Source: an uncultured Candidatus Saccharibacteria bacterium
GTDB taxonomy: Bacteria > Patescibacteriota > WWE3 > UBA101185 > UBA10185
Reading direction: 5' to 3'
NCBI GenBank assembly: GCA_964387275.1
Contig: CAYLVW010000002.1
Span: 63,286 to 127,285, forward strand
Length of the DNA stretch: 64,000 bases
In this document: piece after piece, positions 8,362-61,408 of the stretch
How the letters are laid out: each line of letters begins with the position of its first letter
How positions within the stretch are numbered: the stretch's first letter is position 1
Made by a program: the position numbers and the translations under genes
The notes under the pieces: generated by a model
Database searches by the model: none
Seen by the model: the letters and a program-made list of their open reading frames with translations, nothing else
Told to the model about the DNA's origin: nothing

Positions 8362-8390
8362 GGGGGGGGGGCTGCGTAGCCCCCCCCCCC
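8362..8390. repeat. G10-CTGCGTAG-C11 homopolymer hairpin preceded by a T-run
   Basis: Sequence tttttttttt atttttt gttt GGGGGGGGGG CTGCGTAG CCCCCCCCCCC, lying in the intergenic region between the response-regulator stop and the histidine-kinase start. Confidence 0.6.
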
Positions 8391-36257: not shown

Positions 36258-36288
36258 AAGAGGCGGGGGCCGAAGGCCCCCGCCTCTT
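36258..36288 (+). terminator. GC-rich hairpin downstream of dnaK (GGCCGAAGGCC-core family)
   Basis: AAGAGGCGGGGGCC-GAA-GGCCCCCGCCTCTT is a perfect 14-bp stem, but the following U-tract is weak. Confidence 0.5.
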
Positions 36289-37126: not shown

Positions 37127-37579
37127 ATGGTATTAGACTCAAAGCAGACAAGTGCTCCCACACAAAATGATCAGGCTGTAAACTCAGGGGTAACCCAGGC
37201 ACCGTCGCCAAATAACTTACCTACAAACCCAGCTACCGCAACCAGAAATACTATCAATTCTTTGTATGGTGGGTATGTGGAACAGGAATCACTACAACAA
37301 GCAACTGACCTAGAGAATATATCAATAGTCCCAGAAATAGTAAAAAACCCCGAAACTAATATACAAATAGAACCGACTATTCAACAAGAACCAAAAAAAT
37401 CCCCCACCACGCCAGAGGTGCAAATAGGTCAAAATGAAAAAGTCCCTAATGTAGAGGATCATTCAACTCACAAAGTGCAGCAGCACAGTGTAAATGCAAA
37501 AGCAGATGCGGTCACAAGCTTTGCAGACAAGGACGAAGAGGAATTTATTACAGGAATAGTACAACACCATGCAAACTAA
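37127..37579 (+). CDS. Hypothetical low-complexity protein (Gln/Pro/Thr-rich)
   Basis: ORF that overlaps the next gene's start by 11 nt. Confidence 0.35.
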   Translation: MVLDSKQTSAPTQNDQAVNSGVTQAPSPNNLPTNPATATRNTINSLYGGYVEQESLQQATDLENISIVPEIVKNPETNIQIEPTIQQEPKKSPTTPEVQIGQNEKVPNVEDHSTHKVQQHSVNAKADAVTSFADKDEEEFITGIVQHHAN

Positions 37580-39977
37580 TGACGTAGGATACATTGTTTT
37601 TTGGATAGTACTGTATCTAACACTTCTTTTCACCGTAATATTTAGTATTGTCTATCTCATATCCAGCTGGTGGCAAAAGCAAATGGATAAAAAGTACGGA
37701 TATGATTTTACGTTTCTTCAAGTTAAAATGCCTCCTTTAAATGAAATAGAAATCAAAAGTGCCGAACAATTCTTTGCAAGTCTTTCAGGATTTAGACGTT
37801 CATTTTGGGACTTTTTGCTAAAGGGAGAGTATAGGATCTCTTTTGAAATTGTATCTAAGGTAACTGGTATAGGGTTTTATGTTGTAGTGCCTGACGAAAT
37901 TGTCACTCTGGTAGAAAAACAAATTAATGGTGCGTACCCTGAAGCAGAAATAGATATTGTAGATCCAAATGAAATATGGGATAGAGGGACATATACCTCA
38001 GTGGCAGAACTTAAACTTGCGGGAGCCTCTTACTACCCAATAAAAAACTACGAAGATCTAAAAAGTGATGCTCTTAGCGCAATAACATCTACAATGAGCA
38101 AGTTACAAGATAATGAGGTCTTAGCAGTCCAGTATGTAATACAATCTGCAGGAGAATCATGGAAAAGAGAGGGCGAGAGGTTCGTGTCTGATGTAAAAAA
38201 CAAAGGAGCAAATCCAGAAAAGAAAACCAATATAGATACGTCATTTCTTGAAGGAGTAGAGAAAAAAATTGTTAAACCAGGTTTCTATGTCTCAATAAGA
38301 GTAATATCTATTGCAGACAGTAAAGTTGCGGCAGAGACACACATTAGAAATATTGTGTCCTCATTTGATCAATTTACAGATTTTAAATACAACAAGTTCA
38401 AACGTACTTGGCACTTTTCATCAAAAAAACTTGTAGATAATTTTATACACAGAAGAATATCTAATTTTGAAATAACAATTCCCATATTTGAAGTCAATCT
38501 TTTCAGATCTTCTTCTATTCTAAATATCGCAGAATTAGCAACAATATTTCACTTCCCTAACAAAGAGATTAAAACACCTAATATAATTTGGTTGCACTCA
38601 AGAAAATCTCAAGCACCAACTAATCTACCAGATGAAGGGCTTTATCTGGGTAAAAGTATATTCAGAGGGGTAAATAAAAAAGTTTTCATGGCTCCTAAGG
38701 ATAGAACAAGACACTTCTATATAATAGGCCAAACGGGTACAGGTAAATCCGAGTTTATGAAGTCTTTAGCATTACAAGATATCGCAAATGGTGAAGGACT
38801 AGCTTTTATCGATCCACATGGAAGTGACATAGACGATATCCTGTCTAAGATACCAGATCATAGAAAAGATGACGTAATACTGTTCGATTTATCAGATACA
38901 GAAAGACCCTTAGGGTTGAATCTACTGGAAGCAGAAAACGAAGAACAAAAACATATGATTATAAACGCGTTCATTGCACTTCTCTACAAACTTTATGACC
39001 CAAATCACCAAGGTATTATGGGACCTTTGCTTGAAAGAGCAATTAGAAATGTTATGTTAACAGCAATGGAAGACCCAAATGCAACTATGGTAGATGTAAT
39101 GAGACTTTTAATAGACCCAAAATATGTACAGAAGTTCATCCCCCTAATTAAGGATCCTATGGTTAAAAAATACTGGACCGATGAAGTTGCTAAAACCTCC
39201 GAAAACAGAAAAGGAGAAACAATGGGTTATTTTGTTGCTAAATTTGATAGGTTTGTAACGGACAAAACAATGAGAAATATTTTAGGACAACCAAAGTCGT
39301 CTTTCAGATTCTCGGACATAATGGCTCAGAAAAAAATTCTGCTTGTAGACCTATCAAAAGGTAAAATTGGTGAAGAAAACTCAAACTTCATTGGCTTATT
39401 ACTTGTTCCAAGAATACTAGCAACAGCATTAGCAAGAGCAAAATTCTTAGGAAAAGAGGATTTCCCAGATTTCTTCTTGTATGTAGATGAGTTTCAAAAC
39501 TTCGCAACACCTGATTTTGCAGTTATTCTATCCGAAGCAAGAAAGTACAAACTCAATCTTGTAGTGGCACATCAATTTATCTCACAATTGTCAGATGAAA
39601 TAAAAACAGCTGTCTTTGGTAACGTAGGTACAATGACAGTTTTTAGAATTGGTGTTGATGATGCCGAGTATCTTGAATCTCAATTTGAGCCCACTTTCAC
39701 AAAAACTGACCTAGCTAATAATCCAAACGGAGCAGCTTATGTAAAACTCCTTGTTAATGGGCATCCTACCCCACCTTTTTCAATGTCAGTAGATTGGGAC
39801 ATGATTACAAAAACACAAAAAAGCAGTGAAATGACAAACTACATAAGAGAAATGTCCCGAACAAAGTATGGAACACCTGTAGCAGAAGTTGAAGAGTATA
39901 TTAACAGAAGGGCGGGTCTTTATGATAAAGAAACCACACCAGAAGCACCGGCAAAATTGCCCAAACTTCCTTTCTAA
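37569..39977 (+). CDS. Membrane-anchored VirD4/TraG/TraD-type coupling-protein-like ATPase with a roughly 350-aa N-terminal extension
   Basis: N-terminal TM. Walker A is FYIIGQTGTGKSEF...AFIDPHGSD, which resembles TrwB (GATGTGKS...VDPNGD). The TraG-D_C-like region is FFLYVDEFQNF...KLNLVVAHQFISQL...AVFGNVGT. Confidence 0.55.
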   Translation: MQTNDVGYIVFWIVLYLTLLFTVIFSIVYLISSWWQKQMDKKYGYDFTFLQVKMPPLNEIEIKSAEQFFASLSGFRRSFWDFLLKGEYRISFEIVSKVTGIGFYVVVPDEIVTLVEKQINGAYPEAEIDIVDPNEIWDRGTYTSVAELKLAGASYYPIKNYEDLKSDALSAITSTMSKLQDNEVLAVQYVIQSAGESWKREGERFVSDVKNKGANPEKKTNIDTSFLEGVEKKIVKPGFYVSIRVISIADSKVAAETHIRNIVSSFDQFTDFKYNKFKRTWHFSSKKLVDNFIHRRISNFEITIPIFEVNLFRSSSILNIAELATIFHFPNKEIKTPNIIWLHSRKSQAPTNLPDEGLYLGKSIFRGVNKKVFMAPKDRTRHFYIIGQTGTGKSEFMKSLALQDIANGEGLAFIDPHGSDIDDILSKIPDHRKDDVILFDLSDTERPLGLNLLEAENEEQKHMIINAFIALLYKLYDPNHQGIMGPLLERAIRNVMLTAMEDPNATMVDVMRLLIDPKYVQKFIPLIKDPMVKKYWTDEVAKTSENRKGETMGYFVAKFDRFVTDKTMRNILGQPKSSFRFSDIMAQKKILLVDLSKGKIGEENSNFIGLLLVPRILATALARAKFLGKEDFPDFFLYVDEFQNFATPDFAVILSEARKYKLNLVVAHQFISQLSDEIKTAVFGNVGTMTVFRIGVDDAEYLESQFEPTFTKTDLANNPNGAAYVKLLVNGHPTPPFSMSVDWDMITKTQKSSEMTNYIREMSRTKYGTPVAEVEEYINRRAGLYDKETTPEAPAKLPKLPF

Positions 39978-39980
39978 TAT

Positions 39981-41738
39981 ATGAGTAAAAAAAATAAACT
40001 ATTTGAAGTAACAGAAGGTACAACAAGCGCAGAAGTAAGAGAACGTACTACGTTACTTGAAACGTCTGAAGACGAAATAAAATATGAACCCAACGCTATA
40101 GCAGAAAGAATATTAGAACGCATAGAAAAAATAAAAACAGGCAATACAGCCTTGGACAAAGCACTCCAAGATGCGGCTGATAAATTGGACGCACATGTAC
40201 ACGGACTAAATAGGTATAGCGAAGGAAGTGAAAAAAGTAGAGATGCGTACCATGAGCTTGAGAAGGATAACCCAGAAAAACTCCAAGAGGTATTTGGAAC
40301 CTACAAAACAATGGTAACAGACCACTTACTAATTGTAGAAAAGCTGTTAGATCAAACAGAAACAAATCCCCAGGGAGCCGCACTAGCAGTAGAACTTATA
40401 ACTGCTTCCACTGAAAACAGAAGAGGAAAAGAAGAGGAAACAAGAAAAAGGTTAAGAGAGTTTGGCATAAGCCAAGGGTTACCTCAAGGCGGAGAAGAGC
40501 AAGTAGTCGAACTACTTAATAAAATATCAGACGGTAGAATTGAATCCTTTGCAGACTATCTTGAGACAAGTGGCTTTGATTCTATTACAGTGGAAAACTC
40601 AGCAAACACCCATAGGGAAAACCTAGGAAAAATTATTAGTCTATCGGAGCGATTTGTAGAACCAAAGGATTATGATGATATATTTGCAACAACCACAAAA
40701 GTAAAAACTAAAGTTAAGGTAGAAAAAACATCCACCGAAGCCCACACAGATGAAACACTGAATAATTTAACAGTTGAACAAATACGTGAACGTATTGCAA
40801 AGCAATGGGATACAGAAAACCAAGACGGCAGTAACCTAATAGACACAACAAGTGGACCAAAACTAGCAGAGCGAACATTTCTCGGGGGAGAAAAGCTAAG
40901 GAAACCACGACAGTTTGCACAAGTTTTTGAAAGGTATATCACTACAAAAGATAAGGATGATATAACCAGATACGATAGAGTTGATGTACCTGTAATAACC
41001 TTGTACGCCGAAAGACAATTAAGTGATTTCACCAAATCAGAAAAAATCTACTCAAATAGAAAAGACCCCGTTGTAAGGATCCCTGTTCTTAATTTTGATC
41101 CAAAAGATTTTGATGAAATAGCCTTTATGAATGAGATGTTAAAAATGGCTCGAAATAACCCTGATGGCAGCTTCGATGTATTTGTAGCAAATGATAGTGG
41201 TAAAGCTGAAACATTTAGAGTGAATGCAGAAACGTATAACGCAATGAGGTATGTGGTACAACGATCAGTGGAATCCCATGCAAAAAAGGGCATAACTTAT
41301 AATCCAGAAGAGATACTTAAAAAGGGTTTAAAAAAGCTAGGACCAAATGAAACGACAACTGAAGAAGAAATAGAGATTGAAACAGAAACAATTACTACAG
41401 AAAGTCAAAACCCTAACGAATGGGTAAATCACAAGCGAGCTCTAGCTAGAATGAAAAGTTTAAGGTCTATTGCAGGCAAAAAATTAGATTTTACGGAAGA
41501 AGAAATGGATCAAACCGGAGAGTCTCTTACCAATTTGGAAAGGATATATACTGAATTTACATCACACATAGGAAGAGTGGAATCGTACTACTATATAGCC
41601 CAACAAAGATTAAAAACTCTTAGTGGAGTTTCTAAAGGACATCCTAGATACGAAGAAGGCTTGGAGATCTACTTACAAAACTATGTGTTGGAACTTGGAG
41701 AAATGTCCATAACATTAAAAAATGCTACAACAACTTGA
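39981..41738 (+). CDS. Hypothetical acidic cytoplasmic protein (585 aa)
   Basis: Start is 4 nt after the upstream stop. No recognisable domain. Confidence 0.4.
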   Translation: MSKKNKLFEVTEGTTSAEVRERTTLLETSEDEIKYEPNAIAERILERIEKIKTGNTALDKALQDAADKLDAHVHGLNRYSEGSEKSRDAYHELEKDNPEKLQEVFGTYKTMVTDHLLIVEKLLDQTETNPQGAALAVELITASTENRRGKEEETRKRLREFGISQGLPQGGEEQVVELLNKISDGRIESFADYLETSGFDSITVENSANTHRENLGKIISLSERFVEPKDYDDIFATTTKVKTKVKVEKTSTEAHTDETLNNLTVEQIRERIAKQWDTENQDGSNLIDTTSGPKLAERTFLGGEKLRKPRQFAQVFERYITTKDKDDITRYDRVDVPVITLYAERQLSDFTKSEKIYSNRKDPVVRIPVLNFDPKDFDEIAFMNEMLKMARNNPDGSFDVFVANDSGKAETFRVNAETYNAMRYVVQRSVESHAKKGITYNPEEILKKGLKKLGPNETTTEEEIEIETETITTESQNPNEWVNHKRALARMKSLRSIAGKKLDFTEEEMDQTGESLTNLERIYTEFTSHIGRVESYYYIAQQRLKTLSGVSKGHPRYEEGLEIYLQNYVLELGEMSITLKNATTT

Positions 41739-42280
41739 TGAATCAAATGACGCTTCTAGAATCCTATGAAGACCTACCAGAAGCTGAAAAGAAAGCGATT
41801 AGAAATCAAATAGTAACATTGCTAAGTTCAATAGATGGAATGGTCCTTGAGCAAAATCCAAACTGGAGAGGTGGTCTTAGGGAAATAAACTCTGTGGATG
41901 CAACTAACCCAAACCCAATAGAAACTAAAGACCCTGTATCACCGGCACCTATATCAGAAGACAGAGCCAAAAATACAGAAGACACAGCAACTGTACAAAC
42001 CCCACAATCTGAGACCGAGGCAGATACTATCCCGCTACTACAAGAGGCAGAAGAAACAACTACTATAGTAGAACCTATAGGTCAAGAAGTGGAAAGAGCA
42101 CAACAACCTGTGTTAGAAACAGTAAGCACTATAACAGAAAAAGGGCCAGTAACTGAAAACGAGCAGGAAGCACAAGAAACGACGCCAAAATCACGAAAAA
42201 CTACTAAAAGAAAAGGTAAGAATATCAGAAAAGAAGCAGACAGACAAAGACGGCAGGCGCGACGGGAAGAAGCCTATTAG
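41735..42280 (+). CDS. Hypothetical acidic protein with an Arg/Lys-rich C-terminal tail
   Basis: Overlaps the upstream stop by 4 nt. It ends KSRKTTKRKGKNIRKEADRQRRQARREEAY. Confidence 0.4.
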   Translation: MMNQMTLLESYEDLPEAEKKAIRNQIVTLLSSIDGMVLEQNPNWRGGLREINSVDATNPNPIETKDPVSPAPISEDRAKNTEDTATVQTPQSETEADTIPLLQEAEETTTIVEPIGQEVERAQQPVLETVSTITEKGPVTENEQEAQETTPKSRKTTKRKGKNIRKEADRQRRQARREEAY

Positions 42281-42311
42281 TTGATTAATCCATAATGCTA
42301 TAATCAATTTA

Positions 42312-43502
42312 ATGCTCAATCTACCTTTTTTTAAGACAACTTCCAAAAACAAATTCCTAACAATAGACTTCGGATCAGATAGCGTTAAATGCTTGGCTTT
42401 TTACAATGACGGAGAGATAAATAAAATTATTGGGTTTGGTAAACAACAAGTGGAAAAAGGACATATCCGATCAGGAGCTGTAGTTGATATAGAAGGCGTA
42501 GATCTAGTACTAAAAGAAGCTATTGCTCAAGCAACCCAAAATTCAGGAGAATCTATTGACCAAGCCATTATAGGTCTAAATGGAACATTTATCATCAACC
42601 AATTAGTTACAGCCAGGTTACTTAGAGGTAAAAGTTCTGATATATCAAATAATGAAATGGACGATATATATGAAAGAACGGTTAAATCATCAACAGAACA
42701 AGCTTACAGTGAACTAGTAAAGACCACTGGTAGCAATGATATGGATTTGGAACTCGTAACAGCGGAGAAAGCGTATGTGAGAGTTGATGATAGACCTATC
42801 CACAAAGATACAAAACCTGCAGGAAACAAAGTTGAAATGGCTGTATTCTCATCTTTTGCACCAAGCTATCAAATGAAAAATTTATCAAAGTTATTAAAAC
42901 GCAGTGGTTTAAAAATAATAGGTGTGGTACCGGAAATGTATTCGTTGGTTAAGTCTATCAACCATAAAAAGATTGGATCAAATGATTACCTAATAATAAA
43001 CATTGGTAGCGATAAAACTGAGATTGGCATAGTCTTTGGGGGAAATTTAATTTCCACCAAATCACTTCCTATTGGTGGATATCACTTTACTTATCAAATG
43101 AGTCATGTGTTAGGTTTATCAATAAAAGAAGCTGAAAATTTGAAACGTTCATATTCGCAAGGAAAGCTGCCTAATAGTGAAAGTCTAACAGTTCAAAACT
43201 GTTTTAGTGAAATACTGGAAACCTGGTTAAGTGGTATTGAATTAACTTTTGGAGAATTTACAGGAGTAAAAACTTTCTCATCTAAAATATACTTAACCGG
43301 TGGGGGAATTCATCTTCCTGACATATATGATTACCTAACTAGTGAACCTTGGACCAAATCGATACCATTTAAAGACACGCCAACATTCGAAAAAGTGACA
43401 GCCAAAGATCTACCAGGCATTCAAGATGAAACACAGATGGTAAGTGGGCCTGAGTGGGTAATGCCTGTTTCACTAAGTAATATATTTCATAATCTTGTAT
43501 GA
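42312..43502 (+). CDS. Actin-like ATPase of the FtsA/PilM family
   Basis: Phosphate-1 motif FLTIDFGSDSVKCLAF, and KIYLTGGGIHLPDI near the C-terminus. Confidence 0.5.
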   Translation: MLNLPFFKTTSKNKFLTIDFGSDSVKCLAFYNDGEINKIIGFGKQQVEKGHIRSGAVVDIEGVDLVLKEAIAQATQNSGESIDQAIIGLNGTFIINQLVTARLLRGKSSDISNNEMDDIYERTVKSSTEQAYSELVKTTGSNDMDLELVTAEKAYVRVDDRPIHKDTKPAGNKVEMAVFSSFAPSYQMKNLSKLLKRSGLKIIGVVPEMYSLVKSINHKKIGSNDYLIINIGSDKTEIGIVFGGNLISTKSLPIGGYHFTYQMSHVLGLSIKEAENLKRSYSQGKLPNSESLTVQNCFSEILETWLSGIELTFGEFTGVKTFSSKIYLTGGGIHLPDIYDYLTSEPWTKSIPFKDTPTFEKVTAKDLPGIQDETQMVSGPEWVMPVSLSNIFHNLV

Positions 43503-45016
43503 CTAAAATAGAACTAGAAATTTTTGACGACCTAATAGTTACACTAAACAAAATAAGAGCGGTTAATGATTCTGGGATTGAGCTCCACATACCAGAAGGC
43601 TCTCCTATTTTGGACAACATTGTTTCATTAAAACTTCTAAAAAAAGAGGCAGAAAACATGCAAAAAATCCTGCACTTTGTTACAAAAGATGTAGCAGGTC
43701 TTGAACTTTTATCGCAACTACAAGAAGAACAAACAGATACTTTAGTGGAGCAAGAAGTAGATAAAATATCAGAAGACGGCGCAATAGGAACAATCACAAA
43801 AAAACCTGCGTTTAGATTCCCTACATTAAAACTCCCAAAACTGCACGCAGGACTCCCAATAATTGCATTAATAATTGTAGTTGTTGGGGGAATCTTACTT
43901 GCAGGTGGTTGGTATTTGTATAACTTGCCGAAGGCTGAAGTCACAATTGTGGTAAGCTCAGAATCACTTTCCAAAGGATTACCGGTTAAAGTGAAAGACG
44001 GGGTTTCTACTTCAGCAGAACAAAAAACTCTAAGAGGGTACATATTTAAATCAACCCTAACAGAAACAAAAGAAGCGGATACTACAGGAGAGAAAATTGT
44101 AGGAAAAAGCGCCAAAGGTAAAATAAAGATCTTTAATAAAACTACTGAAGAAAAAACTTTTAAAAAAGGACAAACTGTAACATACGAAGATGACGAAGAA
44201 AACGATTTTACATTTACGACTGATGAAGAAATAACAGTACCTGCAAGAGTAGATAATATTGATGGGACTATTACCTCCGGGGAAAAGGAGGTTTCTGTAA
44301 CCGCATCAAATATAGGTGAGAACTATAATATTAAGTCTGGGAAAACACTTAGCGTTAAGGATCAGAAAAGCGCAGATTTTACCGCAATTTCTGTTGAAAA
44401 CTTCACTGGAGGAAAGAGTGAAAAAGTTAAAGTGGTCGCTCAATCCGATCTAACTAAATTATCAAGCGATGTAACAACCGCATTAAAACAAAAAGCTCTT
44501 GAGGATTTGAAATTCAAATTAGGTCTTACCCAAAAAATAATTGAGGGAACCATACAAACTAAGGTTGTTGAAGAAGCATTCAATCATAAAGTAAACGAAG
44601 AATCTGAAAAAATTATACTTACACAAAATGTCGAAGCCAGCGCCTTGGTATATTCTTCGGTAGATATGGATGAACTGCTAGATAATCTATTGGAGAGCTT
44701 TGTACCAAGTGGGTATGTGCTATCTTCAAAAGATAAGGTTGTTAATATTGAGGTTTTAGGAAACTCAGCAACAACAGTGTTAAAAGAAAACGAAGCTGAC
44801 GTACAACTTACTATTAAAACTTATATAGTCGCTGATATTACAGAGGAAGGCATTAAAGATGCGATAAAGGGAAAGGGGGTAGAAGAGGCTAAAAAAGTGC
44901 TAGACGAAGTTAAAAACGTTAACAGTTACGCTTTAAATCTAAACCCTTCTATCCCACTACTAAGTTTTATACCTAAAGACACCAATAGAATAACAGTTGA
45001 TATCAAAAGGGAGTGA
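43499..45016 (+). CDS. Hypothetical bitopic membrane protein (TM near residue 115, large Lys/Thr-rich ectodomain)
   Basis: Contains LPIIALIIVVVGGILLAGGWYLY. Overlaps the upstream stop by 4 nt. Confidence 0.4.
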   Translation: MTKIELEIFDDLIVTLNKIRAVNDSGIELHIPEGSPILDNIVSLKLLKKEAENMQKILHFVTKDVAGLELLSQLQEEQTDTLVEQEVDKISEDGAIGTITKKPAFRFPTLKLPKLHAGLPIIALIIVVVGGILLAGGWYLYNLPKAEVTIVVSSESLSKGLPVKVKDGVSTSAEQKTLRGYIFKSTLTETKEADTTGEKIVGKSAKGKIKIFNKTTEEKTFKKGQTVTYEDDEENDFTFTTDEEITVPARVDNIDGTITSGEKEVSVTASNIGENYNIKSGKTLSVKDQKSADFTAISVENFTGGKSEKVKVVAQSDLTKLSSDVTTALKQKALEDLKFKLGLTQKIIEGTIQTKVVEEAFNHKVNEESEKIILTQNVEASALVYSSVDMDELLDNLLESFVPSGYVLSSKDKVVNIEVLGNSATTVLKENEADVQLTIKTYIVADITEEGIKDAIKGKGVEEAKKVLDEVKNVNSYALNLNPSIPLLSFIPKDTNRITVDIKRE

Positions 45017-46554: not shown

Positions 46555-47967
46555 TTATCTTCTACCGCCCTTTTTTTCACCCATTATCATTGCTTCAACT
46601 TTTGAAGGAGCAGAATTCGCAAAATAGAAACCCATCATTAAAATAGCAGGTAACATTACGAGAGTTACCATACCCCCAGCTGTATAACCAAATATAGCAA
46701 CACCAAAGAAGTTATCTACCCCAGTCATTACCTGAACAAAAATATTCATCGCAATCAAAAACGTCATTGCCAAGACCCCAGTCATAGCAGGTAAGCTTAG
46801 CATGTAAACTGCCATCTGCTTAAACCAATCAATGGTCATATTATCATTTCCCGGTATAGCACCAATAACAAATATTATAGGGGAGGTTATTATAGCCACT
46901 ATCATTTTGACGTAAGTAAAACCAATTTTTACAGCAATCCAAAGCATCCCAACCAAAGCCATTACTGCAAGAATTATTGGAACAAGAAAGATAAAACCCA
47001 CAGTCATTAAACCTAAAGAAGCCCCAGTTAAAAAGAAATAGAATATAGGTAAAGGCCCTAGATGAGAAAATAGGTCTGCTGCCTGTTGTAAGGAAGGTGT
47101 GTCACCTCCAGTCACAGCCGCTGTCATGATAATAGGAACTATACTTACCATTAAGGATCTACCGATAGTGGTCATAGTGGCCCCAATAGGATAACTGAAA
47201 GTTATTAGTATAATGGCTATAATAATTCTTGGTATTGCAAATTGAACTGTTACGATTGTTTGCTGATCTATCTTTCTCCTATTCATTATCATAAAACCAA
47301 GCACTAACATCACTATCGCTAATAAGCCGTAAGAAATGTTTCTAAACAACTTCCATGTACCTAAAACCATAGAAAGGGCTACTTGGTTACCCGGATCTCC
47401 GTAGGTTTGAGCTAAGGCTTTACCAATAAAAGGCACGTGGGCAACGGTGTCGTTAGCGTAGTAAGCTAGATTTACAGGAACCAAATCTGTGTGGGTAGTG
47501 CTGTTCACAAAACCTACCAACCCAGCAAAACTACCACCAACAGTGGATTTTGGATCCACTAAAGCGTAGTTATCAACAAACGCTGATGATATGTAACCAG
47601 GCTTTAAAGAATTTGCCAAATTCTGACAAAACTCTGCATCATATGTATCTGCTGTAGAGGGATCTAAACTGACTAAAGAGGGATCTACATCGTGAATAGC
47701 TTGAGCGCACCCACAAATTTGATCTATATTACCACCAAAAAAAGCTGCGCTAGGAATCTCTTGTATAAGAGTGGTTGCAATATTCATGGTAGTTCGGGTT
47801 ATATCTAAGTTTCTGAATATATCTACAACATTTATGTAGGTGTTCTCTCTGCTGTTGCAAGTAGCAACAACCTGAGCAGAAACACTTGGAGTTAAGTACA
47901 AAGCGATGGAAGTGAAAAGCAGTGTGAATACAGAGTATTTAATTAGACTTATTCTCTCAGTTAACAT
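46555..47967 (-). CDS. VirB6/TrbL-like polytopic membrane protein (signal peptide, roughly 200-aa ectodomain, at least 5 TM)
   Basis: Assigned on topology only. It has a signal peptide MLTERISLIKYSVFTLLFTSIALYLTPSVSAQ and a Cys-containing ectodomain, followed by multiple TM helices. Confidence 0.4.
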   Translation of the reverse strand: MLTERISLIKYSVFTLLFTSIALYLTPSVSAQVVATCNSRENTYINVVDIFRNLDITRTTMNIATTLIQEIPSAAFFGGNIDQICGCAQAIHDVDPSLVSLDPSTADTYDAEFCQNLANSLKPGYISSAFVDNYALVDPKSTVGGSFAGLVGFVNSTTHTDLVPVNLAYYANDTVAHVPFIGKALAQTYGDPGNQVALSMVLGTWKLFRNISYGLLAIVMLVLGFMIMNRRKIDQQTIVTVQFAIPRIIIAIILITFSYPIGATMTTIGRSLMVSIVPIIMTAAVTGGDTPSLQQAADLFSHLGPLPIFYFFLTGASLGLMTVGFIFLVPIILAVMALVGMLWIAVKIGFTYVKMIVAIITSPIIFVIGAIPGNDNMTIDWFKQMAVYMLSLPAMTGVLAMTFLIAMNIFVQVMTGVDNFFGVAIFGYTAGGMVTLVMLPAILMMGFYFANSAPSKVEAMIMGEKKGGRR

Positions 47968-48034
47968 TCTGAGGAAATTTTACAATAAAAACAAAATATC
48001 AACAACAACCTACTTATATACTATAATTCAGGGT

Positions 48035-51000
48035 ATGGCACGTAATCCATTCTATACAGGATATATACCTGGTGATGAAAACGATCCACTATATAAAATA
48101 AGGCCTAAGAGAGTTAAGCCCGGTACTCCTGTAAATTTTGGGTTTAATTTTGAAACACAATTAGTGCAGGAGCTTGAACATGAAGCAGACATTCCAGCCA
48201 AAGTAAAAGAATACATTATAGACGCGGAGGTAGACGAAATTAAGTCAGCATTTAAGGTGTCGGCTGGCATAGGTAAGAAAAGCTCGCTATCAAACCAAAA
48301 ACTAAACGATATTCAAAGAACTGGCGAAGAACCAGAACTACCCGGAGCAATGGGTCTTAGTGTAAATCTAATTGATCTTGTAACTAATCCGCAAGAAACT
48401 GTAGCAAAAGTTCTAACCGAGGGCTGGAAAAACATCACCAGCTGGGAGGAATTTGATCAAAACCTATCGCACAGAGCATTTGCAAGAATTTTAATGGATA
48501 AAGATGCTCCAATTGATGAAGAGAACGGGCCAAATACAGGTAAAGAACTTGAGCCAAGGCTACCTCTACAAAAACTTGCAGAAGATACATATACAAGAGG
48601 AACAATAAATCTCTCTGGTATAGAACTTCCCGATTATTCAGACCAAGGACAAAAAAACCCACTACAAATGTGGAGTGATAATAAATCTGGCTTTAGAAGA
48701 GGTAGAGGTAGATTCTTTGAAATCAAATATAAAAATTATGATGGAGACGAAGTAACAGAGAAAGTTGGTATGGAAACAATGTATAAAGAAGTTGCGGATA
48801 AAGCTTCTAAATTTGTGATGACCTCAAAATCCGCTTCAAGTAGGGATAGTGCTTATGAAGACTACCTAGCAACTTTACAAAAGGTACTCACCAAAGAGCT
48901 TGATCAATGGGACGGAACTCTAACAGATGACATGAAGGAAAGGTTAAAAAAGGCTGCAGCCATAAATCCTGCCCTTGCAATACCTGAAGATAAGGTTGTA
49001 GAGGTATTAAAACAAGCACGAAGTAATTTTGTGAATAAAGGGGGCTTAATAAACGCTGTTAGGGATTTGGGTGGAGATGAAGATAGTGGTCTGGGAGGAC
49101 TATCATCCCAGCTAAGTAGGTTTGTAGTCGAAGGACGCACAGACAATACAGCCTCCGAGATGGAAAAAACCATAGCAGGAATAGGTAGTGCAATAAAAAC
49201 CAGTGAAAAAAAGATAGATACACTAAGAAACGCATTATCAGGAGAAGCACTAAGCACTTTCAATAAACAAATCAGACCGTATGAAGAGTTGTTAACACAA
49301 ATTAAAGGTACAGTTTTTGATGTTAAAGAAGGTGAAACTCTAGCAGTATTTAATGCAACTACAGCAAGCCCAAATGTAAGAAGATTATTAAATAATATCA
49401 AGTCTGGCGTAGCAGGCCTTGGGGATAAAGCAGATGCTACATCAATATTAACTACCATAAATTTTGTAACTAGTGGTGGATTAGACCCCACTAAAAGCCC
49501 TCTTACAAACGGTACAGTTGTAAATCAAAGTCTTTTATTTAAGTTGCAAAGAGATCTTATTGAAGGTGGGTTTGATAGAAGTATCGGCGCCAGAGAAATG
49601 GTACACCTTGATGACATTGGAGTATTAACAGACATAATGGGTGTTGAAGATGCAAACGCTTTGAAAGTCCTCACTAAAAGACTCCAAAATATGAGGGAGT
49701 GGGACGCGTTTAGAGAAGCACTACAAAACTTTGATGGAGGAAAGCTTTGGAGAAACTATTACTATGTAAAAAGAATTAGAGACAACCTTACAATTCTCAC
49801 ACCTTCTTATTGGGTTAACCACGCACTAAAACGGGTTCAGTACTTTGGATTTAAGATTGATGAGAAAAACTTGGCTAAAAGTCCTAAATTAATCCAATAT
49901 CTAATAACAGGGTCTCCTCTGAGTGCTTTATTTGTAAACAGATTTTCATTAAATATTACTTTTGTAGGTGCTGGTAAAACTAAAGTTAAGCTTGAGGGTG
50001 GAAAACACTTTAATGGAGTAACAAGCCTATACAGCTTATACAGCTCAGAAAAATTAAGCAAAGCAGAACTTAAAAGTTTCCTAAGTTTTATAGCCTTTGA
50101 TGCAAAAGCACTCTACAAAGATCCCGCAAAGAAAATAATGAATGCTGATTGGGTTGAGTGGCATAAGAAACTAACAGATGTTTTTAAAGATAAAGATAAA
50201 GCCCAAAAGTTTTTAGAAGATATACAAGGCTTCACAACTTGGTTACAAACTAAAGGAAAATCAATTGTTGGTGAAAAAGTGCTTAGAGACGCCGAAAATC
50301 TATTTAAACTTCTAGGAGCTTTGGTAAATCACGAAAGCAAGGCAGGCACTTCAAGCATCACAACGACTTTCCTGGGTGTAATAGATAAGGTAGCCATTCA
50401 ATTTAATAAAGTTCAGTCCTATTTGTTAAATAAATTTGGTAAGTGGCTTGCACCAATCAGCTACCTAAAACAAGCTATTGCAGAGGGTGTGACGGATGCA
50501 TTAATGGGCATACTTGCTGCGATCACAGGGGGTCTATCTGCCACTGCAACTCCTATAATAAAGTGGGTCCTACAATGGACCGTCGTTAAAACCCTAGATT
50601 TCTTCGAAAAAATAATACAAGGCATATCAAAAGGAGATTTATCCTTCATATTTAAGGGATACGAAAAAACCCTAACCAGAATATTCAAATATGTAATGTA
50701 CGCTTCTATTGTCCCGTTCACATGTATGCTTCTGGTTTTGTTTGTTTTTAATGTGTTGCTTTCTTCGATAAACCCGGTTAATGTGGCTAGAAACACCGTA
50801 AGTTCTGCGTTTTCATCTGTAACAGGTAGTTTTTTTACTGGAGCTGTAGGGGCGATTGTAGGAGCACTCTTTGATGGAGGAAGTGATGGGCATTATCTAT
50901 CTCAAAGAGATGCAGCATGGGCTACAGTACTTATAGGTGCCTCAGGACTTACTTTATATGAAGTTGGTTGTTTAATTGTTAGTGTTGCTATGGTGTATAG

Positions 51001-51322
51001 CTATTACGGTATAAATATCTCTCCAGTGGAAATAGCCCTAAATGCAGCCAATTTCGCTGGAAATAGTGCTTTACTATATATGCCTTCTATCGGTGGGCAT
51101 ACTTGGGCAACCGCTACATCAATTGCAGGTGAGATTGCAGCAGGAAACCCTGTAATTCTAGGGATAAACACAGGCCCTTGGGGTACTCATTTTGTAGTAG
51201 CTATAGGCATGGACTCAAATGGATGTCCTATAATACATGACCCCTGGATTGGCCCTGATAGAAATTACTGCACTGAGTACGGCAGTATGAGCAAAATATT
51301 TACTACAAGAGTACTAAGATAA
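48035..51322 (+). CDS. Giant (about 1096 aa) envelope protein: soluble N-region, multi-TM region, and a C-terminal C39-like (Peptidase_C39_2) papain-fold cysteine peptidase domain
   Basis: The C-terminal YEVGCLIVSVAMVYSYYGINISPVEIA...GTHFVVAIGMDSNGCPIIHDPW matches the C39_2 pattern (nGCeitSLAMvLnYYG...HavVvtGyd...vnDP). The start is trimmed to MARNPFYTG (ATG at 48035), with TATAAT 8 nt upstream. Confidence 0.5.
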   Translation: MARNPFYTGYIPGDENDPLYKIRPKRVKPGTPVNFGFNFETQLVQELEHEADIPAKVKEYIIDAEVDEIKSAFKVSAGIGKKSSLSNQKLNDIQRTGEEPELPGAMGLSVNLIDLVTNPQETVAKVLTEGWKNITSWEEFDQNLSHRAFARILMDKDAPIDEENGPNTGKELEPRLPLQKLAEDTYTRGTINLSGIELPDYSDQGQKNPLQMWSDNKSGFRRGRGRFFEIKYKNYDGDEVTEKVGMETMYKEVADKASKFVMTSKSASSRDSAYEDYLATLQKVLTKELDQWDGTLTDDMKERLKKAAAINPALAIPEDKVVEVLKQARSNFVNKGGLINAVRDLGGDEDSGLGGLSSQLSRFVVEGRTDNTASEMEKTIAGIGSAIKTSEKKIDTLRNALSGEALSTFNKQIRPYEELLTQIKGTVFDVKEGETLAVFNATTASPNVRRLLNNIKSGVAGLGDKADATSILTTINFVTSGGLDPTKSPLTNGTVVNQSLLFKLQRDLIEGGFDRSIGAREMVHLDDIGVLTDIMGVEDANALKVLTKRLQNMREWDAFREALQNFDGGKLWRNYYYVKRIRDNLTILTPSYWVNHALKRVQYFGFKIDEKNLAKSPKLIQYLITGSPLSALFVNRFSLNITFVGAGKTKVKLEGGKHFNGVTSLYSLYSSEKLSKAELKSFLSFIAFDAKALYKDPAKKIMNADWVEWHKKLTDVFKDKDKAQKFLEDIQGFTTWLQTKGKSIVGEKVLRDAENLFKLLGALVNHESKAGTSSITTTFLGVIDKVAIQFNKVQSYLLNKFGKWLAPISYLKQAIAEGVTDALMGILAAITGGLSATATPIIKWVLQWTVVKTLDFFEKIIQGISKGDLSFIFKGYEKTLTRIFKYVMYASIVPFTCMLLVLFVFNVLLSSINPVNVARNTVSSAFSSVTGSFFTGAVGAIVGALFDGGSDGHYLSQRDAAWATVLIGASGLTLYEVGCLIVSVAMVYSYYGINISPVEIALNAANFAGNSALLYMPSIGGHTWATATSIAGEIAAGNPVILGINTGPWGTHFVVAIGMDSNGCPIIHDPWIGPDRNYCTEYGSMSKIFTTRVLR

Positions 51323-51443: not shown

Positions 51444-51920
51444 TTATAAAGTGATTCCAAAATTACTCAACAAATTAACCAGTGAGGCATAAAAAGTGTT
51501 AACTATACCTTGGGGGCTGGATGCATTTATACCGACCATGCCAGCAGCAATACCAACAATAGAGAAACTTCCCAACACAGCCAAAAAACCCAAGAAAGCA
51601 TAAAATATTGTATCTTTTGCTCCTTGAAATCCTTTTGGGTCACCTAAGGACTGAGACATTTTAATACCACCATATGCTGCCATAATTGCGAAAACAAGGC
51701 TTGAAGAATATAAAGCTATATTTACTACCCTAAGCAAAGGACAAATTATTGCGGCAATACTTGGGGGGTCAGCATCTCCACTACCCGAACCCCAATCGAC
51801 GATAGAAGGACATGAATATGGTGTGGGGCTCATCGGAACCGCATAAACATTAGGGGTCAAAAAAAAGAGTGAAACTAATAAAGTTAAACTTATTATAATT
51901 GGGTTAAAACGTTTTCTCAC
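51444..51920 (-). CDS. VirB2/TrbC-like pilin paralog 4 (signal peptide plus TM hairpin)
   Basis: Signal peptide, a Cys-containing spacer, TM1, the loop SQSLGDPKGFQGAKDT, then TM2. Confidence 0.45.
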   Translation of the reverse strand: MRKRFNPIIISLTLLVSLFFLTPNVYAVPMSPTPYSCPSIVDWGSGSGDADPPSIAAIICPLLRVVNIALYSSSLVFAIMAAYGGIKMSQSLGDPKGFQGAKDTIFYAFLGFLAVLGSFSIVGIAAGMVGINASSPQGIVNTFYASLVNLLSNFGITL

Positions 51921-51922
51921 TT

Positions 51923-52243
51923 TTAGAACTCTGTATTTAAATTAGTAATATTTGGGTCAGTAACACCAAGAGCTTGGGTTATGGTTAATCTTGCCCCAAT
52001 AACCACAAAAGAAATTAAAATAGCAAAAGCACCATAAACAACAGCGTTCCAAGCCTGCTGTACCCCTTTTGGATCCCCTTTACTCATAATATATAAGTAA
52101 CAGGCCCATGCCAAGTTAACAATCGCAGCGCCAAACCCTACTCCCGCTAGGATATTTAGACCTACAATCAAAAAGTCCCTAATAGAATCAGGGGCTGATG
52201 CTGGATAAAATTGAGTTGCTAAGTTGTCTATTACGTTGAACAT
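51923..52243 (-). CDS. VirB2/TrbC-like pilin paralog 3
   Basis: TM1 is LIVGLNILAGVGFGAAIVNLAWACYLYIM, the loop is SKGDPKGVQQAWN, and TM2 is AVVYGAFAILISFVVIGA. Confidence 0.45.
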   Translation of the reverse strand: MFNVIDNLATQFYPASAPDSIRDFLIVGLNILAGVGFGAAIVNLAWACYLYIMSKGDPKGVQQAWNAVVYGAFAILISFVVIGARLTITQALGVTDPNITNLNTEF

Positions 52244-52270
52244 TGTTTCGTGTTTCTACCGTCCCGATTT

Positions 52271-52295
52271 CTGGGCGGGCCGAAGGCCCGCCCAG
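52271..52295 (-). terminator. GC-rich hairpin (GGCCGAAGGCC core) between pilin paralogs 2 and 3, a putative intra-operon attenuator
   Basis: CTGGGCGGGCC-GAA-GGCCCGCCCAG lies between the 52310 stop and the 52243 start. Confidence 0.45.
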
Positions 52296-52309
52296 CTCCA
52301 AGAACAAAA

Positions 52310-52645
52310 TTAGAATATTGCGGATCCTCCCGGTCCTGTGGCATTTCCACCGATCAAACCTGGGATAATAGTCCTCAATACTGTGATAAAGAAAAGACCC
52401 ACGCCTCCTACTACGGCATAAGTAAGCCATTGTCTGGCTGCATCAGTAGCTTTAACTTCTCCCTTGGATGTAACATACTGTACAAAACCCAAAGCTAACA
52501 TAACGAAAACTAAAGCCCATCCTATACCGATAATGAGGTTAATTACCATAGCGAATACCTGAGGCAAACTGGATACGTTTGGTAATGGGTTGCTCAACGT
52601 GGTACTAACCGCGGTTTGAGCATAAACTCTTTGTAATAATTCCAT
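52310..52645 (-). CDS. VirB2/TrbC-like pilin paralog 2
   Basis: Long leader, TM1 FAMVINLIIGIGWALVFVMLALGFVQYV, loop TSKGEVKATDAARQW, TM2 LTYAVVGGVGLFFITVL. Confidence 0.45.
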   Translation of the reverse strand: MELLQRVYAQTAVSTTLSNPLPNVSSLPQVFAMVINLIIGIGWALVFVMLALGFVQYVTSKGEVKATDAARQWLTYAVVGGVGLFFITVLRTIIPGLIGGNATGPGGSAIF

Positions 52646-52674
52646 AATTGTTTAAAGTTGTTACACCTCCTCTT

Positions 52675-53190
52675 CTAAAGTAATGCTGTTATTATAACCC
52701 TTAATAATCCTGCAGACAACAAAATAAACAAAGTGCCCATAATTGCGGAGGACATCTCCTCTACAGCTTCTTTATACTTCTGTGGATTGCCTTCACTCAG
52801 TTTTATAGAATAACCGGCTTTAATTATAGAAAATATTGCATATCCTATAGCCAACGGAAACGCTACTGCATAAAGGTTCTCTATAACGGTATTAAAATTA
52901 AGGATTGTATACCACTCACTTGCTGTTCCAGTAGGTAAGGGCATTGGGGGAACAGGAGTAGGCGTAGGGGTAATTACTACACAAGTACACATCTCAGACC
53001 CGGGAGGGTTTTCAACACAGCGTATGGGATTACCACCCCCATCGGGAACCACACCGCCAATTAAGGAACCCTGACAAGGACCACAACTAGTAGGCAAGCA
53101 CAGCTGCGCAAAGACACTTGGAGTGAAAAACACTAAAGATGCCAAAAGAAAAAGGAAAAACACTGTTAAGTTTTGGTATAATCTCTTCAT
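52675..53190 (-). CDS. VirB2/TrbC-like pilin paralog 1 with a Cys/Pro-rich N-region
   Basis: Signal peptide, then CLPTSCGPCQG...CTCVVITPTPTPVP, a hydrophobic helix, the loop KLSEGNPQKYKEAVEEM, and a second helix. Confidence 0.4.
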   Translation of the reverse strand: MKRLYQNLTVFFLFLLASLVFFTPSVFAQLCLPTSCGPCQGSLIGGVVPDGGGNPIRCVENPPGSEMCTCVVITPTPTPVPPMPLPTGTASEWYTILNFNTVIENLYAVAFPLAIGYAIFSIIKAGYSIKLSEGNPQKYKEAVEEMSSAIMGTLFILLSAGLLRVIITALL

Positions 53191-53248
53191 AAGTATGACC
53201 TGCCAAAATTATCAAGCACCCCAAAATAAACGTCAAGGTTTATTGATA

Positions 53249-55072
53249 ATGACTTTGATGATTATAACAACGATTGTGGTAATTACCATACCTCCAATGA
53301 TTGTTTATGCTGAAGACGACCTTGAGGATATCCAAAAAGAGATTGAAGAAAAAGAAGAAGATTATGAATCTACATCCAAAAAACTAGACAGTATTAAAAG
53401 CCAAAAAGACAATATTGCCCAAAAGATAGCAAATCTATCAAGCCAACTTACTGTAACAGACTCCGAAATAAAAGATCTAGAAAATGATATACAAAAACTC
53501 CAGTCTGATTTAGAAGTTATTAATAAAAATCTGTTGGACAGCAACACAGCACTTCAGGATCGAATTGATCTTAGAAATAAGGTCATTAGAAATTACTCAA
53601 AAAGAAGCACCGAAAATTACCTGCAGATGTTTTTATTAAATGGAAATGGACTAAATGGTTTCCAATTTAATACCTTAACCTATATTTTTGATAAAACTTT
53701 TTCTGACGAAAGTATCCAGCTAATTCAAAGCATAAACGTAGAGATTGATAATTTCGAAAAGGATAAGAAAGAATCAGAAGAATTAAAAAAGCAAATTGAA
53801 GAACAAAAAACCAAACTTGTAAATGCAAAAAATGTGCTTCTTGCTCAAAAAAGCTCTGCACAGGGTGAATTAGATAACCTACAAAAACAGCAAAGTTCCT
53901 TCGAAAATGAGCTAGCAAAAATTAGTGCTACTCTAGACAATCTGAACAAAAAACAACAAGAGATTCTAAAAGAAAAGTATGGATCCGAACAAGAAACGGT
54001 GGGAGACAACGAAACAGACTACTCAGAACTACCTGATCCAAGCTTTTCACCAGCGTATGCTTTCTACACTTATGGCTACCCACATAGAGTTGGAATGAGT
54101 CAATACGGAGCTTACGGCAGGGCAAAAGCAGGGCAAAAGTATAAAGACATTCTAAAAGCCTATTTTAACAATGTAAGTGTTGAGGAGAAGTGGGACGATG
54201 ACGATAAAATACCTGTACAAGGTTACGGAAATATAAAAATGCGCGACTACCTATATGGAATTGCAGAAGTTCCGGAAAGTTGGGCTGATCATGGGGGTTA
54301 TGAAGCTTTGAAAGCTCAGGCAGTAGCGGCGAGAACGTATGCTCTTAACTATATTTATTACACTTATGACTCGAAATCTGGAACTATCAAAGAAAAATCC
54401 CCGGTATCAATTTGCACTACTCAAGCATGCCAAGTATACAATGGTGGCAAAAAAACTGGTACTTGGAAAAAAGCTGTAGATGAAACGGAAGGTGAGGTAA
54501 TAACCTATGGCGGTAAACCCATTACCTCTTGGTTCGCATCGACATCGGGTGGTTACACCCGAACAGCAGCTCAGGTGTGGGGTAGCACAAGACCATGGAC
54601 AAAAAACATGAAAGATGCTTCCTGCTCAGGAAACCTTTCGGACTGTGCTTATGAAGGACCTAAATATGGTAATTCTCCGTGGTTCTATAAAGCCTGGAAT
54701 TCAGGATATTCTGCAAAAAATGCCTGGATGAAAGAAGACGAGGTTCAAGATATTATTAACTCTTATCTACTTTGGGATGACGACAACGACTTGATAGACA
54801 AACTCTCACCACCTTCAAAAGACGGAGATGCCTGGGACAAGGAGGAAGTTATAGAGGAGCTAGAGGACAGAGATATTGATCCTGTAGGTAATATATCGTC
54901 AATAAAAGCTTATGACGATGGAAACGGATATACCACAAAAATTGTTGTTAAATCGTCAAATTACTCAAACCTAGAGCTTGATGGATACGATTTTAGAAAT
55001 ATTTTTAACCTAAGATCACGAGAAAGTCTTTATATCTATACATCATTCTTTAATATCAGGGTTGAGAATTAA
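53249..55072 (+). CDS. SpoIID/LytB-domain protein with an N-terminal TM and a long coiled coil
   Basis: GYPHRVGMSQYGAYGRA...AVAARTYALNY...ICTTQACQVYNGG...SWFASTSGGYT. The start is trimmed to MTLMIITT (ATG at 53249). Confidence 0.7.
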   Translation: MTLMIITTIVVITIPPMIVYAEDDLEDIQKEIEEKEEDYESTSKKLDSIKSQKDNIAQKIANLSSQLTVTDSEIKDLENDIQKLQSDLEVINKNLLDSNTALQDRIDLRNKVIRNYSKRSTENYLQMFLLNGNGLNGFQFNTLTYIFDKTFSDESIQLIQSINVEIDNFEKDKKESEELKKQIEEQKTKLVNAKNVLLAQKSSAQGELDNLQKQQSSFENELAKISATLDNLNKKQQEILKEKYGSEQETVGDNETDYSELPDPSFSPAYAFYTYGYPHRVGMSQYGAYGRAKAGQKYKDILKAYFNNVSVEEKWDDDDKIPVQGYGNIKMRDYLYGIAEVPESWADHGGYEALKAQAVAARTYALNYIYYTYDSKSGTIKEKSPVSICTTQACQVYNGGKKTGTWKKAVDETEGEVITYGGKPITSWFASTSGGYTRTAAQVWGSTRPWTKNMKDASCSGNLSDCAYEGPKYGNSPWFYKAWNSGYSAKNAWMKEDEVQDIINSYLLWDDDNDLIDKLSPPSKDGDAWDKEEVIEELEDRDIDPVGNISSIKAYDDGNGYTTKIVVKSSNYSNLELDGYDFRNIFNLRSRESLYIYTSFFNIRVEN

Positions 55073-61365: not shown

Positions 61366-61408
61366 GCTCCGAAGTTCGGGGCTTTTTTTGTAAACAAAAA
61401 AAGCCCCT
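61366..61408. terminator. Tandem hairpins between convergent rplY and the M23/SLT gene: GCTCCGAA-G-TTCGGGGC plus T7 (plus-strand intrinsic terminator), overlapping GGGGCTTTTTTT-gtaaac-AAAAAAAGCCCC
   Basis: The stem and T-tract lie 26 nt after the rplY stop. Confidence 0.6.

Follow-up and report, generated by a model that had tools for sequence, protein, structure and literature searches.

We describe a chromosomal cassette of four tandem pilin-like genes, O4, O3, O2 and O1, in an ultrasmall bacterium of the WWE3 lineage of Patescibacteria (the candidate phyla radiation, CPR). The cassette lies in a 64-kb stretch of contig CAYLVW010000002.1, which we refer to as the window. In our assessment it probably encodes four ancient, specialised VirB2-like pilin subunits of the PF18895 family, destined for a surface filament or channel extension built by a type IV secretion system (T4SS). 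This reading draws on family membership, on a gene order that is fixed across related lineages and on a regulatory layout in which O3, the second gene, appears to lie between a conserved promoter motif of its own and a hairpin that resembles a terminator, elements whose activity we infer.

The four open reading frames (ORFs) follow one another on the minus strand, at exactly the positions given in the initial annotation of this DNA, a model's reading of the letters made without database searches (Table 1). In each product, a short, Lys-containing S-x-G-(D/E/N) loop joins two hydrophobic helices, and hydropathy profiles place each of the loop strings that had been picked out, SLGDPKGFQGAK, SKGDPKGVQQAW, SKGEVKATDAARQW and SEGNPQKYKEAVEE, between two hydrophobic stretches; the loop of O4 reads SEGNPQKY. 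The pairwise alignment that the annotation had called for bears out the paralogy, with identities of 23–32% by BLASTP and E values of 3e-6 (O1–O2), 4e-8 (O1–O3), 6e-7 (O2–O3) and 1.5e-4 (O1–O4), O4 being the outlier. The Cys/Pro-rich N-region noted earlier in one paralog is that of O4, which has six Cys followed by TPTPTPVPPMPLP.

Signal peptides had been assigned to all four proteins, an assignment that holds for O1 and O4 and fails for O2 and O3. Both O1 and O4 show the n/h/c pattern; cleavage is predicted after residue 27 of O1 (MRKRFNPIIISLTLLVSLFFLTPNVYA followed by VP, ending NVYA/VP, where the slash marks the cleavage site), and the O4 signal peptide ends SVFA/QL. By contrast, O2 and O3 start only 15 nt and 9 nt past an in-frame stop, respectively, and the first hydrophobic segment of each is the first pilin-core helix rather than a signal peptide. 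The O3-type N-terminus, M-x(0-5)-[LI]-x-x-V-[YF]-A-[QA] (start codon at 52643-52645 in the window), resembles a signal peptide in the cleavage region only. Its Ala is at least 90% conserved, the consensus among relatives is M.LLQKVYAQ, and the motif may be a processing site or a contact surface. Relatives of O2 share a different N-terminal motif, MFD.L. O1 begins with a GTG codon 2 nt past the O2 stop and carries a Cys pair (C37 and C60); its positional type keeps such a pair just N-terminal to the first core helix.

Table 1. Features of the pilin cassette and its flanks, with window coordinates; g1 to g4 denote positional types, and identities are pairwise means for each type.
Feature	Position	Strand	Mean pairwise identity	Signal peptide	Description
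SpoIID-like protein (lytic transglycosylase family)	53195-55072	plus			PF08486, E=1.2e-18; N-terminal coiled coil; divergent
O4 (type g1)	52675-53190	minus	0.45 (C-terminal module)	yes	171 aa; Cys/Pro-rich ectodomain (in the type, often very Cys-rich); C-terminal VirB2-like two-helix module
O4 signal peptide	53107-53190	minus			residues 1-28, MKRLYQNLTVFFLFLLASLVFFTPSVFA/QL; from sequence and hydropathy; predicted cleavage
Sigma-70-like promoter motif	52691-52719	minus			TTGTCT-N17-TATAAT; inside the O4 3' end; O3 starts 45 nt further on
Shine-Dalgarno-like motif	52664-52670	minus			GGAGGTG; upstream of O3; read from sequence
O3 (type g2)	52310-52645	minus	0.54	no	111 aa; N-terminus MELLQRVYAQ (type: M.LLQKVYAQ); loop SKGEVKATDAARQW
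GC-rich stem-loop	52271-52295	minus			perfect 11-bp stem, 3-nt loop; between O3 and O2
O2 (type g3)	51923-52243	minus	0.31	no	106 aa; N-terminal MFNVI (type: MFD.L); loop SKGDPKGVQQAW
O1 (type g4)	51444-51920	minus	0.33	yes	158 aa; loop SLGDPKGFQGAK; extra C-terminal helix; conserved Cys pair in the type
Large membrane protein	47906-51322	plus			1138 aa by ORF; C-terminal papain-like Peptidase_C39_2 (PF13529, E=3e-9); convergent

As a group the proteins clearly belong to PF18895 (T4SS_pilin), and three of them are marginal members when taken singly. Against a gathering cut-off of 26.6 bits, O4 passes with 27.4 bits, O3 reaches 22.1 and O2 reaches 18.5; O1 has no Pfam match of its own, and positional orthologues of O1 score 35.8 and 27.5 bits on the same model, above its cut-off. 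None of the four window proteins matches the TrbC/VirB2 model PF04956 (cut-off 27.9 bits) at E<=10. A protein 40% identical to O1 (P0257; E=3e-19) nevertheless passes PF04956 with 31.2 bits, and another relative (P0266) lies above both cut-offs, with 28.4 bits on PF04956. Because these relatives pass it, we regard the two families as overlapping, with the window proteins themselves outside direct membership of PF04956. O1 and O2 also match NF045849 weakly, at about 21 bits (O2, 21.3) against a cut-off of 40 bits; this model describes a pilin-like protein for conjugal transfer in mycoplasma integrative and conjugative elements (ICEs).

Searches were also made at the level of the family. A profile of the four cores retrieved 15,293 cluster representatives at E<=1e-3 from a library of 1.84 billion proteins, and within a 96-member alignment 89 sequences match PF18895 (E<=0.01, best 9e-12), four match TrbC/VirB2, one matches CagC and one matches DUF4134. 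When the family profile was aligned by hhalign with a 76-aa 'TrbC/VirB2 family protein' from Macrococcus, the probability was 88% (E=3e-6). AlphaFold2 modelled O3 as helices at residues 27-59 and 64-98 (core pLDDT 88-95) and O1 as helices at 55-90, 95-128 and 138-153 plus a signal-peptide helix (core pLDDT about 90). Together with the hydropathy of all four proteins, these models display the core expected of a pilin, two hydrophobic helices with a short polar or charged loop over about 70 residues. The PF18895 scores, the relatives of O1, the hhalign result and the helix-loop-helix models thus all support the earlier reading of these proteins as VirB2/TrbC-like T4SS pilins. In Foldseek searches of the PDB, the archaeal conjugation pilin 8dfu ranked first with the O3 model (E=1.8) and ninth with the O1 model (E=2.7), neither match being significant, and profile searches of solved-structure sequences returned designed or unrelated helical proteins and no pilin. 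A weak match to a Methylorubrum plasmid gene in a Dot/Icm-type cluster (E about 0.5) was not used as evidence.

Small hydrophobic proteins invite a different explanation, in which these four belong to an unrelated family of small membrane proteins, such as holins or bacteriocin immunity proteins, and match pilin models through hydrophobic composition only. The sub-threshold scores of O2 and O3, the lack of a Pfam match for O1 and sporadic weak matches of relatives to holin, MatE and DctQ models would be expected under that explanation, which we nonetheless find scarcely credible. PHROGs holds no family for any of the four proteins (E<=0.01), neither a holin nor any other phage family, and we dropped the holin reading on that ground. 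Composition would not account for the 89 of 96 relatives that match PF18895, nor for a loop motif, S-x-G-D/E-x-K...A, that is not hydrophobic and is common to the PF18895 model and the plasmid TrbC/VirB2 protein. The cassette, moreover, sits among housekeeping genes of the chromosome, and genes of phage or bacteriocin type are absent from this context.

Many of the top matches to the core profile are single polypeptides with 2–11 tandem two-helix modules, which we call polypilins. Examples from outside the window are P0004 (552 aa), P0078 (1147 aa), P0013 (287 aa) and P0029 (226 aa), and every module retains the S-x-G-D/E...AK loop. Such fusions are topologically consistent because each module begins and finishes outside the membrane; they could be polyproteins or gene-calling artefacts.

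Comparison across lineages shows that the four genes are not an arbitrary series. The comparison set comprised 17 lineages, the window and 16 other WWE3-type lineages; the whole-family alignment was too diverse for a locus scan, and a narrower O3-type alignment was used instead. The loci have a common order, consisting of a divergent SpoIID-like gene, types g1, g2, g3 and g4, and, converging on them, a gene whose product is a membrane protein of more than 1000 aa. In the two closest lineages, orthologues are 78–81% identical for O3, 50–58% for O2, 40–47% for O1 and 42–43% for O4, compared with about 25% between paralogs. Because the order is fixed and one-to-one orthologues are far closer than paralogs, the paralogs appear to be old and specialised, and the alignments identify them as fixed types rather than interchangeable variants. 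The split in signal peptides seen in the window also holds in the 16 other lineages. Type g2 is the most conserved of the four, with an O3 core that is near-invariant among 26 relatives. At the other extreme, O4-type products are 118–620 aa long and have just the C-terminal module in common between lineages, and, judged from these alignments, real variability is limited to the N-terminal ectodomain of the O4-type gene. A fifth pilin gene, an extra g2/O3-like copy directly after the first, is present in four further lineages (L021, L023, L027 and L030). A third O3-like copy was also seen in L027.

The initial annotation had taken tandem paralogy with divergent N-regions to suggest antigenic or functional variation, and the comparison does not support the antigenic part of this. 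As an explanation of the whole array, interchangeable pilin variants that arose by tandem duplication and divergence for antigenic or host-range variation, as proposed for the VirB2 paralogs of Bartonella and Anaplasma, seem to us decidedly unlikely. The low identity between paralogs would suit such a history, as would the extra O3-like copies and the very variable length of the O4-type ectodomain, and the idea has been raised tentatively for Patescibacteria (PMC12102498). However, every related lineage has a counterpart of each paralog at the same position, and these one-to-one orthologues, which are much more similar to one another than paralogs are, keep their order, length class, signal-peptide state and N-terminal motifs across the 17 lineages. 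Paralogs more alike within than between genomes, the Bartonella/Anaplasma pattern, were not found in this set. Strong conservation of the O3 type is the opposite of what one would expect of an antigenically varying major subunit, and the four genes also differ in regulatory layout.

That layout centres on O3. In its general form, TTGnCn-N17-TATAAT, the promoter motif before O3 has a single match in the window, where 0.29 would be expected by chance. It occurs once per cassette, at the same place, in 29 of 29 cassette-bearing loci, with two extra matches elsewhere. In most lineages the motif overlaps the last g1 codons (L-S...R-V-I-I), and in L013 and L015 it is intergenic, which argues that it is not a by-product of protein conservation. 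We take this motif as the putative promoter of O3. Either GGAGGTG or GGGGGTG precedes the g2 gene in all 17 lineages, 5–23 nt from the start codon. At this site the window lineage has GGAGGTGTAACAAC, which is near-identical across three species.

On the far side of O3, the GC-rich hairpin that the initial annotation had placed between the second and third paralogs is present. On the coding strand it reads CTGGGCGGGCC-TTC-GGCCCGCCCAG, and the 66-nt O3–O2 spacer folds at -31.2 kcal/mol (z=-3.6), a stability that none of 200 shuffled sequences matched. Stem-loops with a folding energy of at most -10 kcal/mol (median -20.5) are found at the g2–g3 junction in 17 of 17 lineages, compared with one of 17 at g1–g2 and none of 17 at g3–g4. 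The stem-loop sequences themselves vary among lineages, and several are canonical U-tract terminators (a U-tract follows the stem-loop in L007, L011, L013, L016, L017, L026 and L029). Rfam has no family above threshold at the hairpin, the only match being the terminator part of a small RNA (sRNA) model, below threshold. From its sequence and position the element is terminator-like and could be a terminator or an attenuator. The hairpin ends 27 nt before the O2 ATG in the window, too short a distance for a promoter, so that O2 and O1 would need read-through. The idea that this hairpin could tune subunit stoichiometry is supported, and the stem-loop kept at the same junction in every lineage strengthens it.

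Other hairpins in the window offer a point of comparison. A 14-bp GC-rich stem without a U-tract directly follows dnaK (36258-36288), a G10/C10 stem, also lacking a U-tract, follows another gene (8362-8389), and the L25 gene is separated from an M23 peptidase gene by an A/T-flanked bidirectional terminator (61378-61407). This genome seems, from these sequences, to use GC-rich hairpins without U-tracts after some of its genes.

We propose the following working model. The helices of each subunit would span the membrane such that the loop faces the cytoplasm and the two termini lie outside, O4 and O1 being inserted by way of cleavable signal peptides and O2 and O3 without one. A T4SS encoded elsewhere in the genome would then extract the subunits and polymerise them into a surface filament or channel extension. 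O3 is our candidate for the abundant major, or shaft, subunit because it is the most conserved type and has its own promoter motif, a strong ribosome-binding site and a terminator-like hairpin. O2 and O1, coupled to each other across the 2-nt gap, would be minor subunits made at a lower level through read-through. O4, a pilin module fused to a hypervariable, disulfide-rich ectodomain, would be the best candidate for the tip or for contact with the host. The two proteins encoded on either side, the SpoIID-like enzyme and the membrane protein with a protease domain, may open the cell wall or process the subunits, if the functional link that we draw from their position is correct.

Several observations weigh against this model. 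Taken individually, three of the four window proteins fall below the Pfam cut-off, and the fold searches are not significant for what is, in any case, a non-specific fold, the helical hairpin. The ribosome-binding site of O3 lies about 20 nt from the ATG in the window lineage, which is unusually far, and the window hairpin has no U-tract, being followed by AAAUCGGG. Our promoter call comes from a consensus motif and its conservation rather than from transcripts, and the label 'major subunit' for O3 is likewise drawn from conservation and regulatory layout only. Pfam and NCBIfam scans covered 52 of the 76 window ORFs of at least 100 aa, most of the others lying inside longer ORFs on the opposite strand, and among the scanned ORFs there is no VirB4, VirB6, VirB3 or VirB8 within the 51 kb on one side of the cassette and the 11 kb on the other. 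Two published accounts, finally, term PF18895 proteins only predicted pilins with the potential to elaborate pili (PMC10633639; 2025 review).

The main rival to the filament is an account that keeps the family assignment and denies the pilus. By this account the proteins are VirB2-family by descent and would serve as membrane-resident channel parts, or as two-helix anchors that display ectodomains such as that of O4. We consider it possible though improbable. It would sit well with the wording of those two accounts, which describe only predicted pilins with pilus potential, with the T4SS core genes not found near the cassette among the scanned ORFs and with O4-type ectodomains of up to about 520 aa carried on a two-helix module. 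Single-membrane bacteria, a group reported to lack conjugative pili, likewise encode small VirB2-like proteins in their conjugation clusters. Against it, the conservation of the O3 core extends to glycine-rich helix faces (GIGWALVFVMLALGF...GGVGLFF), which fits tight subunit packing. A promoter and a terminator around one small gene form a layout typical of abundant filament subunits, and O3 has a putative bracket of this kind. In Southlakia epibionticum, furthermore, the pilin genes are essential (PMC10633639). A filament or channel extension built from specialised subunits remains the reading that we prefer.

The immediate neighbours of the cassette are conserved too. The SpoIID-like gene adjoins it in those related loci that extend far enough. 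In the window the ATG of O4, at 53190-53188 on the minus strand, and that of the SpoIID-like gene, at 53195 on the plus strand (the call made in near-identical contigs), stand head to head, 4 bp apart, so that the promoter of each gene must fall inside the coding sequence of the other. On the minus strand, 53236-53208 matches TTGACG-N17-GATAAT. On the opposite flank, orthologues of the large membrane protein (called as 1095 aa in a near-identical contig) adjoin the cassette in related loci. We examined those of L007, L009, L011, L012 and L013. The C-terminal Peptidase_C39_2 domain is present in the window and L007, and four more distant orthologues have a conserved HExxH motif (LFAHE[STA]GH) instead. 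Judged by sequence, one protease type appears to have been exchanged for another, although the HExxH-type domain matches no Pfam protease family and is called a protease from its motif alone. A scan of genome contigs with the 1138-aa neighbour found no relatives.

Beyond these neighbours, the setting is that of a CPR chromosome, with a low GC content of about 0.36. Housekeeping genes flank the cassette on both sides, including hrcA-grpE-dnaK, lepA, murJ, ruvX, tmRNA, smpB and the L25 gene. Two families typical of the CPR, DUF5671 and DUF5657, are also close by. The closest named O3 homologues and the syntenic loci belong to 'candidate division WWE3 bacterium' and also to metagenome-assembled genomes (MAGs) labelled 'Patescibacteria group bacterium', so that WWE3 homologues, synteny and the two DUF families together place the host in the Patescibacteria/CPR. 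A set of species-representative genomes contained no close match to the window species, the best O3 identity being 67% and the scan with the 1138-aa neighbour yielding nothing. Neither an integrase nor a relaxase is among the 52 scanned ORFs.

Besides the pilins, the only T4SS-related gene in the scanned ORFs encodes an 802-aa ATPase resembling type IV coupling proteins (T4CPs; 37569-39977), with DotL and TrwB as its closest relatives in the PDB. It belongs to an operon-like run on the plus strand (37127-45016) of closely spaced or overlapping genes, namely a 150-aa ORF, the ATPase itself (DUF87, TraG-D_C, TrwB), 585-aa and 181-aa ORFs without a family, a PilM/FtsA-like protein and a 505-aa ORF, after which comes ruvX. 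We considered this operon (37–45 kb) as the missing T4SS machine and rejected it, as the ATPase matches the coupling proteins TrwB and DotL and not VirB4. T4CP-like ATPases have been reported as common in Patescibacteria and, in most cases, not linked to virB4.

For Patescibacteria, diverged VirB2-like pilins in tandem arrays are already published, and this locus reveals no new kind of system. In S. epibionticum ML1, the T4SS cluster was reported by Wang et al. (2023) to include a series of predicted pilins that is essential (PMC10633639). Quinonero-Coronel et al. (2025) described 441 arrays of 2–11 VirB2-like genes in 383 Patescibacteria assemblies, with a mean identity of 25%; PF18895 was among the profiles of that survey, and a pilin gene lay near virB4 in 1,135 of the 1,948 assemblies having both (PMC12102498). 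A 2025 review treats these VirB2-like pilins as an exception among single-membrane T4SSs. With four genes at 23–32% identity, the cassette falls within the array definition of PMC12102498 (at least two pilin genes, in tandem or spaced by one gene, of low identity). It resembles the published arrays in PF18895 membership, phylum-level group, tandem two-helix pilins, identity near 25%, a chromosomal location and the lack of a nearby relaxase. It differs in its WWE3 lineage, which is absent from the main text of both papers, and in having no virB4 among the scanned ORFs of the window; those supplementary files of PMC12102498 that we examined do not mention WWE3 or related assemblies either. Nor do the array descriptions, as far as we searched the two papers, contain the fixed four-type order, the promoter motif before the second gene, the stem-loop after it, the signal-peptide split or the SpoIID and protease-domain neighbours.

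More distant systems share parts of this design. Like the TrbC/VirB2 pilins of PF04956 (Agrobacterium VirB2, RP4 TrbC), the four proteins are small, with two hydrophobic helices and a short basic loop; O1 and O4 have a signal peptide, and some relatives exceed both the PF18895 and the PF04956 cut-offs. Unlike the TrbC/VirB2 pilins of two-membrane bacteria, they do not match PF04956, O2 and O3 lack a signal peptide, the host has a single membrane and no virB operon adjoins them. Two families from other single-membrane bacteria also come close, the Mbov_0395 family of mycoplasma ICEs (NF045849), through its weak matches to O1 and O2, and the pLS20-type Macrococcus protein, through hhalign. These are single genes in mobile conjugation clusters with VirD4 and further transfer genes, whereas the window holds four specialised paralogs in a chromosomal, non-mobile setting. 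The archaeal conjugation and Ced-type pili, represented by the Aeropyrum pernix pilin 8dfu, share the helical hairpin but show no sequence similarity.

The Macrococcus protein is itself of some interest. Its gene lies on the Macrococcus armenti plasmid pJEK46-1 (NZ_CP083605.1, 13348-13578; L032) in a pLS20-type conjugation cluster, where it adjoins genes for an isopeptide-forming fimbrial protein, a VirD4-like protein and a pLS20_p028-family protein. A 2021 paper describes pLS20-family plasmids as lacking VirB2 homologues (PMC8557374). Small VirB2-like proteins may have been overlooked in single-membrane conjugation systems.

What the WWE3 cassette adds is a fixed set of four types and, around the O3-type gene, a putative promoter and terminator bracket. 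The fixed types speak against the current view that arrays of this sort serve chiefly as a reservoir of variants, an idea raised in PMC12102498. Patescibacteria make up a large and mostly uncultured share of bacterial diversity and live attached to other microbes, and in the one species tested the T4SS and its pilin series are essential for this attached lifestyle. Our analysis makes O3 the protein to seek in filaments and O4 the likely point of host contact. A more ambitious reading, unlikely as it stands, envisions a heteromeric VirB2-type filament with a division of labour in a single-membrane host. In such a filament, O3 would form an abundant shaft from its own promoter-terminator unit, and O4 would be a pilin-anchored, hypervariable, disulfide-rich tip or adhesin that sets host specificity. 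The N-termini of O2 and O3 would be recognised or trimmed, at MFD.L and M.LLQKVYA/Q, by the neighbouring membrane protein, in whose protease domain a cysteine type and an HExxH type would have been exchanged during evolution. If true, this would define, for the first time in a PF18895-family pilus, both an architecture of major and minor subunits and a route of processing.

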